Below the pieces are notes generated by a model that saw nothing but the letters and a program-made list of their open reading frames with translations, was not told the DNA's origin and ran no database searches. DNA of 51,466 bases, from the IMG/VR virus record IMGVR_UViG_3300021090_000029, positions 1 through 51,466 of that record; one strand, 5' to 3'. Positions 46,835 to 51,466 of the stretch are shown one piece after another (the first letter of the stretch is position 1; the number at the start of each line of letters is the position of its first letter). This DNA comes from a virus (taxonomy: Duplodnaviria > Caudoviricetes). A program made the position numbers and the translations under genes.

Positions 46835-47111
46835 GCGATTTCTTTCTTTTCTGCTCGATAAGCTTTAGGCGACTTTCTGGCTGGCAAAAGACACCGTTGC
46901 AGTATTTTGCCGTTGCCTCCTTATCCCACGTAACCCACACACTATTTGCCTCGACTGCCCCCCAATAAGGGTGTACTCCGTATCCCCATACCGTTCCCGC
47001 ATCTCCCTTCTTCAGCCCACAATGGAACTCTGTTTTGTCTTTAATCATAACCCTATCGCCTGGAGCGAATCCGATAAGTCCAGAGGCAATCCGCCTAGAT
47101 AGACTGCTCAT
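46821..47111 (-). CDS. MSKLSR-leader family, copy 13
   Basis: MSSLSRRIASGLIGFAPGDRV. Confidence 0.8.
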   Translation of the reverse strand: MSSLSRRIASGLIGFAPGDRVMIKDKTEFHCGLKKGDAGTVWGYGVHPYWGAVEANSVWVTWDKEATAKYCNGVFCQPESRLKLIEQKRKKSLDNR

Positions 47112-47371
47112 TCATCCTCCGTAATGACTTCGTATTCACCCGGCCAAAGACACCAAGAAACTCCTGGCCTTGCTCCGTCTTTGTTCCAGCCGACCTTATT
47201 TTTGAGTTTAATGGTTATGTCCCCGTCCGGACCAACCTCAGTAACAATCCCCCCTCTGGTCCGTCTAAGATAATCCCCCCACACGACAATACCTCTCTGG
47301 GTCAAACAAACGCGATCCCCGACCTGCGGCCCGATCAGGCTACCGGCAATCCGCCTAGATAATTTACTCAT
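47108..47371 (-). CDS. MSKLSR-leader family, copy 14
   Basis: MSKLSRRIAGSLIGPQVGDRV; C-half nearly identical to copy 4. Confidence 0.8.
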   Translation of the reverse strand: MSKLSRRIAGSLIGPQVGDRVCLTQRGIVVWGDYLRRTRGGIVTEVGPDGDITIKLKNKVGWNKDGARPGVSWCLWPGEYEVITEDE

Positions 47372-48470
47372 CTTGCATCCTTACCACGTCCCCAAAAGGC
47401 GGGTCTGCGTCCTTCGTCATTGTAGCCCAAATGACGGGATAATTCGGCGGCGTCTCCGGAAACTCCCCATAAAGATCGGTCAAGTAGATCAGCACTTTAG
47501 GCGGGGACTCATCACAATGAGCAAACACGGGCCGAAAGTCTGTTCCCCCGCCGCCCCTCGGCTCAAACTGCCCGGCTGACACTAACTCCCCAGGCTCAAA
47601 AGTCTGAATATGCCCTATCTCTGCGTCACACCAGATCATTTCAACGGCCGCGCCGGTTTCGTCGGCTATGGAGACGACTTCCCCGATAAATTGTTTTAGA
47701 ATGTCCCCGCAAATTGACCCAGACGTATCTATGGCCACGGTTATCTTAGACCATCCCTCCGAATAAAGGCCGGGGAAATAAAGTCCCCTGTGGATCAGCC
47801 GCCGCGATGGTTTTGTCCAAGAGTAATCTTCCTTCCTGCAACTGTCTACAAACGGCCTTAATTGGAGCCTCCAATCAATTAACGGATTTACGATTTCGTC
47901 TATGATCCGTTCCAGCCCGGCGGGCAAACTCCCCCGGCTCTTGGCCGATCGGGCGGCCTCCGCTATAACCCCCCGCATTCCCGCTTCTGTTTTTTGCGTG
48001 TCTTTACCGCCGTTGGCGTCTCGGCATGCCCCGAAATTATAAAAACCTTTGATCTTTTTGGCATGTTTGAATAGATCATCGTAAACCCTATCGACAGTCC
48101 AATCATTATCATACTTGTCGTCTAAAAGACAGCCGGGGGGTAATTCCGCCCCCTGCTTCGTAAGAATCCGGTTAATGATGTAGTCTCCGGCGATGTTCCA
48201 AAGTAGCGGATCGCGGCCGTTCCGTCTGGTAATATGAAGAAAGCAAATATGAAGGGCCTCATGCTCCAAAAAAGCCCTTATCTGATTGTCGGTGAGTTTA
48301 TCTATAAACTCCGTACCATAGCCGATAACCCGACCGTCGGTGTATCCGGTAGGCTGGCTGTTGTCCTCTTTCAAAAGCAGTCGGGTAACTAAAAGACCAT
48401 AAAAAGGTTGCCCCCCGACGGCTTTTAACAGATTGATCCTCTGTTTAACGATCCTATCATGGGCTGTCAT
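47364..48470 (-). CDS. DUF2201-type metallopeptidase-like plus VWA domain protein
   Basis: HEALH, WNIA.D..IN, DTSGS MIDAS, GGGGTDF, TD.YG. Confidence 0.85.
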   Translation of the reverse strand: MTAHDRIVKQRINLLKAVGGQPFYGLLVTRLLLKEDNSQPTGYTDGRVIGYGTEFIDKLTDNQIRAFLEHEALHICFLHITRRNGRDPLLWNIAGDYIINRILTKQGAELPPGCLLDDKYDNDWTVDRVYDDLFKHAKKIKGFYNFGACRDANGGKDTQKTEAGMRGVIAEAARSAKSRGSLPAGLERIIDEIVNPLIDWRLQLRPFVDSCRKEDYSWTKPSRRLIHRGLYFPGLYSEGWSKITVAIDTSGSICGDILKQFIGEVVSIADETGAAVEMIWCDAEIGHIQTFEPGELVSAGQFEPRGGGGTDFRPVFAHCDESPPKVLIYLTDLYGEFPETPPNYPVIWATMTKDADPPFGDVVRMQDE

Positions 48471-48718
48471 GCTAGTCTTATGTCCTCTTTCCAACACCAA
48501 TAACCCTGACATGGGCGGGTGTGCCCGCCGCAACTGCGCAAGGTCACGCATTTCGGCCACTCAACTGCCCAACTGTTATCGCGTTGGTCAAAAAACCGAA
48601 CCACTCCACGGGTCCCTTTTTTGATAGCCATGCCACCCAAGTCCAATACAGCTATAACCTCATCGCCGGGCAATATCCCAACTAAATCCCCGGCGATTTT
48701 CCGGGATAGTTTACTCAT
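48467..48718 (-). CDS. MSKLSR-leader family, copy 15
   Basis: MSKLSRKIAGDLVGILPGDEV. Confidence 0.8.
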   Translation of the reverse strand: MSKLSRKIAGDLVGILPGDEVIAVLDLGGMAIKKGTRGVVRFFDQRDNSWAVEWPKCVTLRSCGGHTRPCQGYWCWKEDIRLA

Positions 48719-48719
48719 C

Positions 48720-48752
48720 TTACCCCGCAATCCGGCGCGATAGATCGCTCAC
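48720..48752 (-). pseudogene. leader-only copy 16 of the MSKLSR family (MSDLSRRIAG*)
   Basis: GTG AGC GAT CTA TCG CGC CGG ATT GCG GGG TAA. Confidence 0.7.
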
Positions 48753-49735
48753 ACCAACACCGCCTTGTTCTTCTCGCACCACTTTTCGTACTCTGGATTA
48801 TCCCGCATCGTCCGATGCTTTCTTAGGGCATCCTGGACGATAAGCGTTGCGAACTCCGCCGGGAGCCGTTGTGCATAAATCATGACACGTCCGAAATTAT
48901 CTGGCGTTGTTACGTCCCCTAAAGATGTGGCCACGGCGTACATCGCGGACGTATTCTCAGACGGCGGGACCCGGGCGCTTTTCGGAGATTTTAGGATTTC
49001 TTCCGTTGTCGGCAACTCCCGCCACGTTTTCAGAAATCCATCGTATTCGATTGCCGCGCCCTCGCCGACCGCCCCGGCGGACAAAAGAAATTCCATGCCA
49101 GGATTATGGTTCGCCTTCAAAAGCCGGTCCAGCTTTTCCCATGACCGGGGAGTCGGAAACGCTTTTTCGTTTTTCTTTGTATCGTGATTAAACAGCATCA
49201 CTCTCCGGGCGCGGATGTAGCCGATTACCATCGGGCTAACCTTATTTGCTTGCGCCCACATGATCCATTCGTCTACGTCTGGCTCTAATGTGGCGTGCAC
49301 AAACCTATTAGCCAAGGCCGAGGACATAGAAAAGGCAATCGCCCGATCATTAAGCCTATTTCCCGCCGCGATAACATCCCATCCCTGAGGCAATTCATAG
49401 CTCCCTAAGCGCCGATCCAAAATCAATTGATAAAACGCCGCCTGGATACTAGGGGGGGCCGCCGTCAATTCGTCCAGAAACCATATCCCCGACCCCTCCG
49501 TGGGGAATTCCGCCGGGACAAGCCACTTTGTACGATCCCCCACCGCCGCCGGGACTCCCCGAGTATCCACGGCATCCATTTGCGAGGCCCTTGTATCATA
49601 TAATACCCGCCCCATTTCCTCGGCCACCTGCCGGACGATAGCCGATTTCCCGATCCCTGGCCCGCCCTCAATATAGACAGGTTCGTGGCAAGAGACCGCC
49701 GTAAACAGCAGGGCGCGGAGTTCTGATGGTTTCAT
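48749..49735 (-). CDS. MoxR-type AAA+ ATPase
   Basis: GGPGIGKS, FLDE, AAGNR..D, AL.NRF, TPRSW. Confidence 0.9.
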   Translation of the reverse strand: MKPSELRALLFTAVSCHEPVYIEGGPGIGKSAIVRQVAEEMGRVLYDTRASQMDAVDTRGVPAAVGDRTKWLVPAEFPTEGSGIWFLDELTAAPPSIQAAFYQLILDRRLGSYELPQGWDVIAAGNRLNDRAIAFSMSSALANRFVHATLEPDVDEWIMWAQANKVSPMVIGYIRARRVMLFNHDTKKNEKAFPTPRSWEKLDRLLKANHNPGMEFLLSAGAVGEGAAIEYDGFLKTWRELPTTEEILKSPKSARVPPSENTSAMYAVATSLGDVTTPDNFGRVMIYAQRLPAEFATLIVQDALRKHRTMRDNPEYEKWCEKNKAVLV

Positions 49736-49747
49736 GTGTCCCCCTGA

Positions 49748-49776
49748 GTGATATCATTCGCCTTCGTTGTTGTCAA
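49748..49776 (-). promoter_or_regulatory. possible sigma70 promoter upstream of the ATPase
   Basis: TTGACA-17 nt-TATCAC with TG extension; -10 imperfect. Confidence 0.4.
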
Positions 49777-49786
49777 GCTGTTTTTG

Positions 49787-49847
49787 GCCCGACGCGACCC
49801 GGCCTCCGCAAGGGCCGCGTTTCGTCCTCACCGGACTCGTCAGGGGC
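49787..49847 (-). ncRNA. hammerhead ribozyme, type I
   Basis: GCCC CUGACGA GUCC-gguga-GGAC GAAA CGCGGCCC...GGGUCGCG UC^GGGC. Confidence 0.9.
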
Positions 49848-49849
49848 AG

Positions 49850-50596
49850 TTACCTGATTTTTCCCTCCCACAAAACCTTCCCGCCTTTCCCCCCGTGAAG
49901 TCTCCATTTCTCGCCGCCGAAGGATGGGACTAGCCCCATTTCCCATAGATCAACGGCGGCCTGGAACGGATAAGTCGTCGTTCGAATTTTCTCCGCGCAT
50001 TTCCACGACTTGCGAGGGAGAGCAAAGAACGATCCGGTATAAGCCAAGGCGCTTCCCCAGACGCTTCCCCAGGCGCTTCCCCTGACGCTTTCCCTGACGC
50101 TTTCCCTGACGCTTTCCCAGGCGCTTTCCCCGACGCTTCCCCAGACGCTTCCCCAGACGCTTTCCCCGACGCTTTCCCTGACGCTTTCCCCGACGCTTTT
50201 CATGACGCTTTCCCAGACGTTTGACCATTGTTTTAATAGGGTCAGGTGTTTTGCCGTTATCTTTTTCGGGGGCGCGACCCGGAACGGATGGACGATCGGC
50301 TTGCGGACGAGAATCTTATCCAGCTTCGCAAGCCACTTCTTGTGTGCCGTCGTTGCCTCCGCCATGTGGACTTCGCTCCACCAATCCGGCGGAGCGTCCT
50401 CGTCCAGCCGGAACTTCCACTTGTCCGGCGCGAGATAAGACCCGTTGGCCGGGGCTATCTCGAACCGCGCCCAGTCCCGGGTATATCCGTCGTCTTTTAA
50501 CACATAGTCGCGGACAAGGTCTTCATGCGCATCCGTGCCGAATTTCCAAATGACCTTGCCTGACTCTAGGATCAGCCCGGAAAAGGCTTTACACAT
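49850..50596 (-). CDS. hypothetical protein with SVxE/SVWG tetrapeptide repeats
   Basis: 248-aa ORF. Confidence 0.75.
   Translation of the reverse strand: MCKAFSGLILESGKVIWKFGTDAHEDLVRDYVLKDDGYTRDWARFEIAPANGSYLAPDKWKFRLDEDAPPDWWSEVHMAEATTAHKKWLAKLDKILVRKPIVHPFRVAPPKKITAKHLTLLKQWSNVWESVMKSVGESVRESVGESVWGSVWGSVGESAWESVRESVRESVRGSAWGSVWGSALAYTGSFFALPRKSWKCAEKIRTTTYPFQAAVDLWEMGLVPSFGGEKWRLHGGKGGKVLWEGKIR
50047..50220. repeat. 12-bp coding tandem repeat (~14 units, consensus GACGCTTTCCCC)
   Basis: Read directly. Confidence 0.9.
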
Positions 50597-50741
50597 ATGA
50601 CCGGATTCCGACGTTGAAAGGGAGGAATCCGACCGACGCCAAGAACAGGAAAAGGACTCCCAGGTCTATCCCGAGATAGTCCGCGAGTCCTACCGCAGCC
50701 CCAATCGTGAGGCCCACCTTCGCCAGCCTGATGAGATACAT
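50589..50741 (-). CDS. 50-aa membrane peptide
   Basis: Hand translation MYLIRLAKVGLTIGAAVGLADYLG...; AGGAG RBS. Confidence 0.55.
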   Translation of the reverse strand: MYLIRLAKVGLTIGAAVGLADYLGIDLGVLFLFLASVGFLPFNVGIRSYV

Positions 50742-50806
50742 GCGGTTCTCCTATCGTTTTATTCCCGGCCCCCATATCTAACTAGATAGACGGCCGGGTG
50801 AGAAAT

Positions 50807-50908
50807 TCAGAGATACCGGACACAAAGAGCCCAAAAGCAGATCGTCAGATACATCAGGACGGTCAAGGCCGCCCCGATCCCGAGGATGTTCCAAGCTGTC
50901 TTAGTCAT
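50807..50908 (-). CDS. 33-aa membrane peptide
   Basis: MTKTAWNILGIGAALTVLMYLTICFWALCVRYL; AAGGAG RBS. Confidence 0.55.
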   Translation of the reverse strand: MTKTAWNILGIGAALTVLMYLTICFWALCVRYL

Positions 50909-50932
50909 TCCGTTTCTCCTTCCGTGTCTTCT

Positions 50933-50984
50933 GGCCTCTTCAGTCTCCGCATTACGGAGAGACGGGGGAGTCCCCGTTTCGGCC
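50933..50984 (-). ncRNA. hammerhead ribozyme, type II
   Basis: GGCC GAAA CGGGG-acuc-CCCCG UC^UCUCCG-uaaug-CGGAGA CUGAAGA GGCC. Confidence 0.9.
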
Positions 50985-50986
50985 TG

Positions 50987-51466
50987 TTACTTCTCCTTCG
51001 CCTTGGCAATGGCGGACCCTGAGATTCCGAGGTCCTTCGCCCGATGGCTCGTCCGGGCGAATCCCAGGATTGCCTTCCGCGCCGCGCGATAGGCCTGGTC
51101 CTCGCAGTCGATGGCGCAAAAATGGGCCGCCAACTGCGCGGCGATCCTCGCATCCACCCGGACGCCCCTGGAGCCGCACCAGAGCGGCCAGCAGGCGTAA
51201 TCCAGGTCGGCCCCGCTCAGGTTGGCCCCGCGCAGGTCGGACCAGCTCAGGTCGGCCCCGCTCAGGTCGGCCCCGCTCAGGTTGGCCCCGCGCAGGTCGG
51301 CCCCGCGCAGGTCGGACCAGCGCAGGTCGGCCCCGCGCAGGTCGGCCCCGCGCAGGTCGGACCAGCTCAGGTTGGCCCCGCGCAGGTCGGCCCCGCGCAG
51401 GTCGGCCCCGCTCAGGTCGGCCCCGCCCAGGTCGGCCCCGCTCAGGTCGGCCCCGCTCAGGTCGGC
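50987..51466 (-). CDS. pentapeptide-repeat protein (5' end outside window)
   Basis: 15-bp repeats encoding A[DN]L[SR]G, then DLDYACWPLWCGS...KEK*. Confidence 0.85.
   Translation of the reverse strand, partial: ADLSGADLSGADLGGADLSGADLRGADLRGANLSWSDLRGADLRGADLRWSDLRGADLRGANLSGADLSGADLSWSDLRGANLSGADLDYACWPLWCGSRGVRVDARIAAQLAAHFCAIDCEDQAYRAARKAILGFARTSHRAKDLGISGSAIAKAKEK

Follow-up and report, generated by a model that had tools for sequence, protein, structure and literature searches.

The DNA analysed here, referred to as the window, is the whole of an IMG/VR virus record of 51,466 bp, which is classified as complete (CheckV completeness 100) and linear. The portal, tail-spike, virion and large-terminase genes are located on the plus strand. 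The minus strand carries, from about 51.4 to 32 kb, the replication and early genes, including those for a primase/helicase, an exonuclease, an HNH protein, a regulator, a MoxR-like ATPase and its DUF2201/VWA partner. Two hammerhead ribozyme motifs were identified on the minus strand: HH2, a type II site at the beginning of this operon, and HH1, a type I site further downstream. The whole phage DNA is present in a freshwater-sediment sequencing run, possibly the one from which the record derives, and the HH2 sequence was found to be identical in a second, later freshwater metagenome (2025 run; two identical 151-nt DNA pieces, 50776-51059). In the direction of minus-strand transcription the region is composed of the following features:

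50987..51466, minus strand: pentapeptide-repeat gene upstream of HH2, its 5' end lost at the contig end (PF00805, E 2.7e-53; stop codon TAA at 50989-50987).
50933..50984, minus strand: type II hammerhead HH2, 52 nt (core, helices, minimum free energy fold, descriptor and subclass model).
50916..50921, minus strand: Shine-Dalgarno sequence AAGGAG, 7 nt 5' of the ATG at 50908 (read from the sequence; unpaired in the 141-nt fold).
50807..50908, minus strand: hydrophobic ORF of 33 aa, starting 24 nt past HH2 (ORF list; no Pfam or PHROG match).
50589..50741, minus strand: hydrophobic ORF of 50 aa (ORF list; no Pfam or PHROG match).
49850..50596, minus strand: ORF of 248 aa with a core of 4-aa SVxx repeats, from a large uncharacterised family (945 relatives at E<=0.001, no Pfam match).
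49787..49847, minus strand: type I hammerhead HH1, C17 = 49791 (descriptor; RF00163 16.3 bits, gathering score 34).
48749..49735, minus strand: MoxR-like AAA ATPase, the first gene past HH1 (phrog_1297, E 6.8e-95; PF07728).

Both genes that precede a ribozyme contain genuine internal tandem repeats, as the sequence-only reading of this DNA had stated: a 15-nt unit is present 17.6 times at 51203-51466 and a 12-nt unit 14.2 times at 50050-50219. The association of the ribozymes with tandem-repeat genes may be a coincidence. The contig end falls inside the 15-nt array of the pentapeptide-repeat gene and this gene is not continued at the other end of the record; the end of the 51,466-nt record is probably a break at the repeat rather than a genuine genome terminus. 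Members of the 248-aa family, for which neither Pfam nor PHROG gave a match, share an invariant Met1-Cys2 start and further invariant residues (W, H and E). The central SVxx array is kept family-wide and is thus not a recent expansion. For the products of the ATPase gene (48749-49735) and the DUF2201/VWA gene (47364-48560), both on the minus strand, the closest named relatives belong to the Desulfobacterota (Pseudodesulfovibrio, Desulfosarcina and Desulfobacter; 44-47% identity), which weakly suggests where the host of this sediment phage may belong. No close phage relatives were retrieved from IMG/VR with exact peptide words of the ATPase and the 248-aa protein, and a blastn search of 48700-51466 against GenBank phages returned pentapeptide-repeat matches only, which are uninformative. 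A scan of the whole window for tRNA and tmRNA genes gave no hits. Within 47000-51466, a promoter consensus scan yielded no promoter-like minus-strand site from the contig end to HH1, and a terminator consensus scan yielded two weak terminator-like sites, both within ORFs.

HH2 begins 2 nt past the stop codon of the pentapeptide-repeat gene (TAA, followed by CA). On the minus strand it reads GGCC-GAAA-CGGGG-ACUC-CCCCG-UC up to the predicted cut and UCUCCG-UAAUG-CGGAGA-CUGAAGA-GGCC beyond it. The type II hammerhead that had been proposed at 50984..50933, together with its distance from the stop codon, was confirmed base for base with all core nucleotides, three helices and the type II order, and consists of the following parts:

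50985, minus strand: unpaired A capping stem II on its 5' side, with the A at 50932 as its 3'-side partner (family conservation).
50981..50984, minus strand: 5' strand of stem II, GGCC (11.4-11.1), partner of 50933-50936 (sequence).
50980-50977, minus strand: GAAA, comprising G12 A13 A14 and A15.1.
50962..50980, minus strand: G12 A13 A14 and the stem III hairpin CGGGG/CCCCG with loop ACUC, closed by the pair A15.1(50977)-U16.1(50962).
50961, minus strand: C17, with the predicted cut at 50961/50960 (hammerhead consensus).
50944..50960, minus strand: stem I hairpin UCUCCG-UAAUG-CGGAGA with the subclass loop G-U-N-A-N-G-C (sequence and alignment).
50937..50943, minus strand: core CUGAAGA (C3-A9; sequence).
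50933..50936, minus strand: 3' strand of stem II, GGCC (10.1-10.4; sequence).

All positions of the hammerhead core as defined for clan CL00010 (C3 U4 G5 A6 N7 G8 A9, G12 A13 A14, A15.1-U16.1 and H17) are found in HH2, and the core-adjacent pairs are standard (10.1-11.1 G-C, 1.1-2.1 U-A and 15.1-16.1 A-U). [quoted passage not shown] For the 57-nt stretch both the minimum free energy (MFE) structure and the centroid correspond exactly to the three-way junction (-26.3 kcal/mol, z -2.8), and this fold is kept in a 141-nt context, in which the ribosome-binding site is unpaired. Hammerheads cleave 3' of position 17 and thereby leave a 2',3'-cyclic phosphate and a 5'-OH end. The cleavage site suggested earlier, between 50961 and 50960, agrees with C17 = 50961 in the hammerhead consensus, cleavage itself being a prediction. 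A strict descriptor covering three topologies matched only HH2 and HH1 when applied to both strands of the whole window. From its core, helices and fold we conclude that HH2 is a genuine type II hammerhead and one more representative of a large known group of phage ribozymes.

Two other origins of the motif were considered. A chance motif was ruled out for HH2, as the two matches of the descriptor in the genome compare with 10 matches (type I 1, type II 5, type III 4) in 2825 dinucleotide-preserving shuffles of the window. A terminator or simple regulatory hairpins were also ruled out, since there is no U-run and 11 core positions fit a ribozyme.

For the identification of relatives, IMG/VR was searched with a pattern that fixes only the core and the stem II of HH2 (GGCCGAAAC..GTC..CTGANGAGGCC; pattern 1). 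It was found in at least 120 IMG/VR stretches. Among the 143 matches listed, 127 parse into both stems, and the remaining 16 mostly show a bulge in stem I; with 28 of these 143, 52 nt is the modal length and also that of HH2, and the exact architecture of HH2 is present in 65 of the 135 unique members among the matches listed. A second pattern, in which the loop I motif was fixed and stem II was left free, was applied to IMG/VR and then to bacterial genomes, where it occurred on at least 120 contigs from many phyla. The statistics for pattern 2 were established with the 108 distinct matches from newly found loci among the matches listed. In 102 of these, stem II measures exactly 4 bp, and its pair 10.2-11.2 covaries (U-A 56, A-U 19, G-C 19, C-G 12). 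The unpaired A on the 5' side of stem II is present in 107 of the 108 and in all 139 unique pattern 1 members among the matches listed. The opposition of the two capping residues in the listed pattern 2 members is A.A in 83, A.G in 15 and A.C in 8 cases, and HH2 has the arrangement A-GGCC...GGCC-A. With its 4-bp stem II with A caps and its 6-bp, G-C-closed stem I with the loop U-N-A-N-G, HH2 is by architecture a member of a type II hammerhead subclass that is widespread in phages and prophages. The subclass as delimited here may already stand in the supplements of Perreault 2011 or Olzog 2021.

An alignment of HH2 and 26 distinct 52-mers obtained with pattern 1 (27 sequences, gapless) revealed that G30, U31, A33 and C36 are invariant and G35 is conserved in at least 90%, none of these positions being fixed by the pattern. 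When the hammerhead structure is laid on this alignment 99.8% of 432 cells are paired, and in slid-partner controls pairing falls to 34-44%. Compensatory double changes were detected in 9 of the 16 pairs, and the stem III pairs covary in the 52-nt class; the pattern itself fixes six of the remaining seven pairs, and the last is the invariant G30-C36. The number of double-change cells amounts to 74 compared with 16.4 +/- 3.3 in shuffles, and 74 was reached in none of 500 shuffles. A covariance model built from the 26 relatives with the window left out (R2) scored HH2 at 63.9 bits (rough E 4.8e-14, whole window, filters off), an agreement which is independent for loop, lengths, caps and pairing and exists by construction for core and stem II, because the training set was fetched with these two elements of HH2. 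The next R2 match in the window has 13.3 bits.

The outcome was divided for the Infernal search by which the sequence-only reading had proposed to check HH2: the leave-one-out subclass model recovers the ribozyme clearly, and the Rfam type II model does not reach its threshold. HH2 was not reported when the window was searched with Rfam at the gathering score, and it was absent from an Rfam search of 2467 nt (49000-51466) as well as from a genome search with RF02276, both at E<=10. On a piece of 111 nt (50900-51010), RF02276 detected HH2 with 25.8 bits (gathering score 37; E 0.001 for that small search). Since HH2 is seen in 111 nt and missed in 2467 nt, it is the speed filters and not the score that remove it, and kilobase-scale scans therefore under-report such ribozymes. 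The nine obvious type II hammerheads of one relative, locus L088, scored 28.2-39.3 bits with RF02276; three of the nine reach 37 and six remain below, and the score of HH2 is the lowest among the relatives checked.

The nine ribozymes of locus L088 (880-5160, minus strand) all belong to the subclass and are distributed over about 4.3 kb, with one ahead of almost every small ORF. Some of the downstream leaders are near-identical, which suggests duplicated units of ribozyme plus gene.

In the majority of type II hammerheads loop I forms a pseudoknot of 4 or more bp with the 3' tail (Perreault 2011, PMC3088659), a feature that is not obligatory. By inspection, the loop UAAUG of HH2 has no complement in its tail AGAAGACACGG unless stem I pairs are broken, and across the 304 subclass members among the matches listed no mutual information was detected between the loop positions N32/N34 and the flanks. 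Contacts of the U-A kind between loop I and the end of stem II occur in other hammerheads. The invariant U and A of the loop and the invariant A caps, held at a fixed distance of 4 bp, suggest that a contact between loop I and the end of stem II may substitute for the pseudoknot in this subclass.

A further observation concerns the 3' tail. In 59 of 139 family members among the matches listed (L081-L200, e.g., L086:3341-3397 and L109:2784-2840), the tail reads NUCAG right past stem II and is complementary to the core CUGAN. The first base of this tail tracks N7 (C/G 39, U/A 20, one mismatch), with a mutual information of 0.13 compared with a null 95th percentile of 0.04. The tail implies an alternative hairpin which would sequester the core, perhaps after product release. 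In HH2 (N7 = A) this alternative hairpin is lacking.

Comparison of the flanking sequences showed that the position of HH2 between two genes is typical for the family. Among the matches listed, a long ORF on the same strand ends no more than 40 nt upstream of the ribozyme in 128 of 138 usable members. The gap between stop codon and ribozyme is -1 nt in 45 of the 138 (TA/G, overlapping the first G), 0 in 21, +1 in 5, +2 in 24 and +3 in 9; the members with a gap of +2, as in HH2, mostly read TAA-CA or TGA-CA. A Shine-Dalgarno sequence with a start codon follows downstream in 107 of 139 members listed at a median distance of 29 nt, compared with 24 nt in HH2. Successive same-strand members are separated by a median of 514 nt (quartiles 356-772, range 250-2751; n=64, among the matches listed), so that the 1170 nt between HH2 and HH1 lie within the usual range.

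For the ATPase, 466 relatives were found in IMG/VR, and the loci of the best 80 were compared with the window. Hammerheads were present in three of these 80 loci, always upstream and on the same strand:

L017: type I hammerhead, 37 nt before the ATPase gene, like HH1.
L053: type II hammerhead, 1.5 kb upstream of the ATPase gene, with a Shine-Dalgarno sequence and a small ORF downstream of it.
L080: two type II hammerheads.

A relaxed descriptor added nothing in the same 80 loci (null rate 0.59 per 517 kb). At 54 loci with a relative of the 248-aa gene, neither hammerheads (descriptor and R2 model) nor any of the other genes of the window were found nearby. With three of 80 ATPase loci and none of 54 loci of the 248-aa family, no gene-specific function of the ribozymes is indicated. 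In L053, the type II hammerhead is directly preceded by about 150 nt (1300-1450) that lack a convincing ORF and include a T-loop-like GGTCAAGTCCC; on L053 no tRNA or tmRNA was detected with ARAGORN.

The second ribozyme of the window, HH1, is likewise located 2 nt past a stop codon (TAA 49852-49850), and the predicted cleavage sites of HH2 and HH1 are 1170 nt apart. Since the two differ in topology and stems, HH2 is not a recent duplicate of HH1, in agreement with what had been noted before. In a 91-nt context the hammerhead fold of HH1 is less stable than the MFE structure by 2.7 kcal/mol (-33.5 vs -36.2 kcal/mol). In the MFE structure of this segment (49770-49860) two competing hairpins hide CUGA and GUC. 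Stem I of HH1 comprises 4 bp and can be extended over internal loops by an outer 6-bp helix, UCAGGU/GCUUGA, which includes the upstream stop codon.

From motif, relatives and gene context we consider it probable that HH2 acts as a cis-cleaving type II hammerhead in the leftward early/replication operon of this tailed phage and uncouples neighbouring cistrons. The 52-nt motif would fold as the polycistronic RNA is made and would then self-cleave 3' of C17. With stems I and III formed as hairpins, the 4-bp stem II is all that holds the products together, so that the two halves should part at once. The mRNA of the pentapeptide-repeat gene would end 26 nt past its stop codon with the stem III hairpin and a 2',3'-cyclic phosphate, and the downstream mRNA would carry a 5'-OH and the stem I hairpin at its start, with the Shine-Dalgarno site of the 33-aa ORF lying free behind them. 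The predicted folds of both cleavage products carry these terminal hairpins. As the outcome, stability or decay and translation of the adjacent cistrons would be uncoupled, and HH1 would act likewise ahead of the ATPase gene. In vivo cleavage of HH2 and an effect on expression are inferences, and precedents for cleavage are described for comparable ribozymes. Prophage hammerheads flank genes, and three clusters of them were cleaved in vitro; those from a prophage of A. tumefaciens self-cleaved in vivo after cloning, and the processing of polycistronic transcripts by such clusters was proposed at the time (Perreault 2011, PMC3088659). In Desulfovibrio vulgaris, three type II hammerheads near phage-like genes are reported to cleave in vivo (Olzog 2021, PMC8782182). 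A review from 2019 puts forward the same idea of uncoupling in a general form and regards the purpose as unproven (PMC6765202).

With the catalytic core, the permutation, the intergenic habitat in phages and prophages and the frequent occurrence of several copies per operon, HH2 corresponds to the type II hammerheads of RF02276 and Perreault 2011 (PMC3088659). It differs from them in its low score with RF02276, its 4-bp stem II, its 5-nt loop I and the lack of a pseudoknot, whereas the paper describes a 2-bp stem II as common and a pseudoknot in most representatives. The prophage clusters of Agrobacterium tumefaciens, Azorhizobium caulinodans and Clostridium scindens resemble the arrangement found here, in having two or three same-strand ribozymes, not all of one type, around single genes or short gene blocks; they belong to other phages and other genes, and they were cleaved in vitro, whereas HH2 and HH1 are predicted from sequence (PMC3088659). 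The D. vulgaris trio detected by cyPhyRNA-seq is also of type II, near phage-like or hypothetical genes, and two of the three are about 300 nt apart; its members are 68-70 nt long as annotated, compared with 52 nt for HH2, and are likened to it by description rather than by sequence (PMC8782182).

The tight spacing between upstream stop codon and ribozyme would also be compatible with a translation-gated switch. A ribosome terminating at the upstream stop codon would occupy the stem II 5' strand and the GAAA, and cleavage would depend on upstream translation. Upstream stop codons are located at -1 to +3 nt in 104 of the 138 members listed, with the downstream start at the median distance given above, and the arrangement of stop codon, CA and GGCC is common to HH2 and 24 members listed. 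However, these figures are raw counts, and the compactness of phage genomes would by itself lead one to expect stop codons this close. The invariant A before stem II moreover favours TAA, TGA or TA/G at this place for reasons unrelated to ribosomes, and the literature consulted holds no experimental precedent for ribosome gating. We regard such a switch as unlikely.

It is also quite unlikely, to a slightly greater degree, that HH2 is decayed, i.e., a hammerhead-like sequence inherited within the family whose cleavage in vivo has become too slow to be useful. Such a reading would be in line with the absence of a pseudoknot, with the lowest RF02276 score of all relatives checked (25.8 vs 28.2-39.3 bits) and with the result that no close phage relatives, which could show purifying selection at the locus, were retrieved from IMG/VR. 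On the other hand, HH2 has no core deviation and no core-adjacent mispair, and every position that is invariant in the subclass is kept, including both capping A residues and the loop G-U-x-A-x-G-C. Its stems are fully paired with compensatory differences relative to the other members, and the sequence recurred unchanged in the second, later metagenome.

A function as a cassette boundary, in which near-identical ribozyme cores serve as short homology for recombination that shuffles gene blocks and cleavage is secondary, appears very improbable. The flanked genes are described as variable (Perreault 2011, PMC3088659), the 248-aa gene occurs at the 54 other viral loci without any of its neighbours from the window, and relatives of the ATPase module (best 80 of 466) are mostly without hammerheads. 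Strong covariation together with core conservation, however, indicates selection on the RNA fold and not merely on DNA identity.

The circle idea of the sequence-only reading, in which HH2 and HH1 excise an RNA of about 1170 nt with ends suited to RtcB-type circularisation, is not supported by the analysis. We consider it scarcely credible that a host RtcB-type ligase closes this RNA into a circular mRNA with three ORFs. Double cleavage of one transcript, giving a 1170-nt RNA with 5'-OH and 2',3'-cyclic phosphate ends and three ORFs, is plausible in itself given that both ribozymes lie on the same strand, and the chemistry of such ends suits RtcB. This ligase is common in prokaryotes (10 of 14 control genomes) and circularises hammerhead-cut retrozyme RNAs in vitro with more than 80% (PMC7229834). 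Hammerhead retrozymes and viroid-like circular RNAs share with HH2 and HH1 the double cleavage and the RtcB-joinable ends, but in retrozymes the ribozymes are tandem-repeat copies and the ends lie in one helix, as described by de la Pena 2020 (PMC7229834), whereas HH2 differs from HH1, protein-coding phage DNA lies between them and their ends are not predicted to pair. A search of the phage genome detected no RtcB. The end-to-end duplex has -37.3 kcal/mol, compared with -34.3 +/- 6.6 kcal/mol for the 5' end with internal windows, and the full-length MFE structure contains no end-end pairs. Given the differences between HH2 and HH1, no ribozyme can be rebuilt from them by self-ligation, and HH1 has the more stable competing fold described above. 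For the prophage clusters, circles or splicing were raised as well, and Perreault 2011 reports that neither product could be detected (PMC3088659). A full-text literature search found no report of bacterial or phage mRNA circles made in this way. Members of the family often occupy many successive gene junctions, with a maximum of nine over 4.3 kb in L088, a pattern more in keeping with cutting into units than with one defined circle. Neither a joint nor any transcript ends were found in the contigs of four of 14 sequencing runs; this is a weak argument, as the RNA coverage consists of one 198-nt contig. This sole RNA-library contig on the stretch (50248-50445) lies inside the 248-aa ORF and may be DNA carry-over. 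If true, the idea would mean an exonuclease-proof, translatable phage RNA circle that encodes two small membrane proteins along with the 248-aa repeat protein.

The occurrence of HH2 as such, read as a cis-cleaving element between cistrons, is ordinary, since gene-flanking hammerheads of phages and prophages have been known since 2011 and in vivo cleavage has been demonstrated for type II. A clear ribozyme and most of its close relatives nevertheless fall below the Rfam threshold, and ribozymes of this kind are consequently undercounted by phage annotation pipelines. The sharply defined architecture of the subclass, which lacks the pseudoknot, points to one specific tertiary contact. The layout found throughout the subclass, with an abutting stop codon upstream and about 30 nt to the next start codon, provides a testable model in which both mRNA halves would keep protective terminal hairpins after cleavage.
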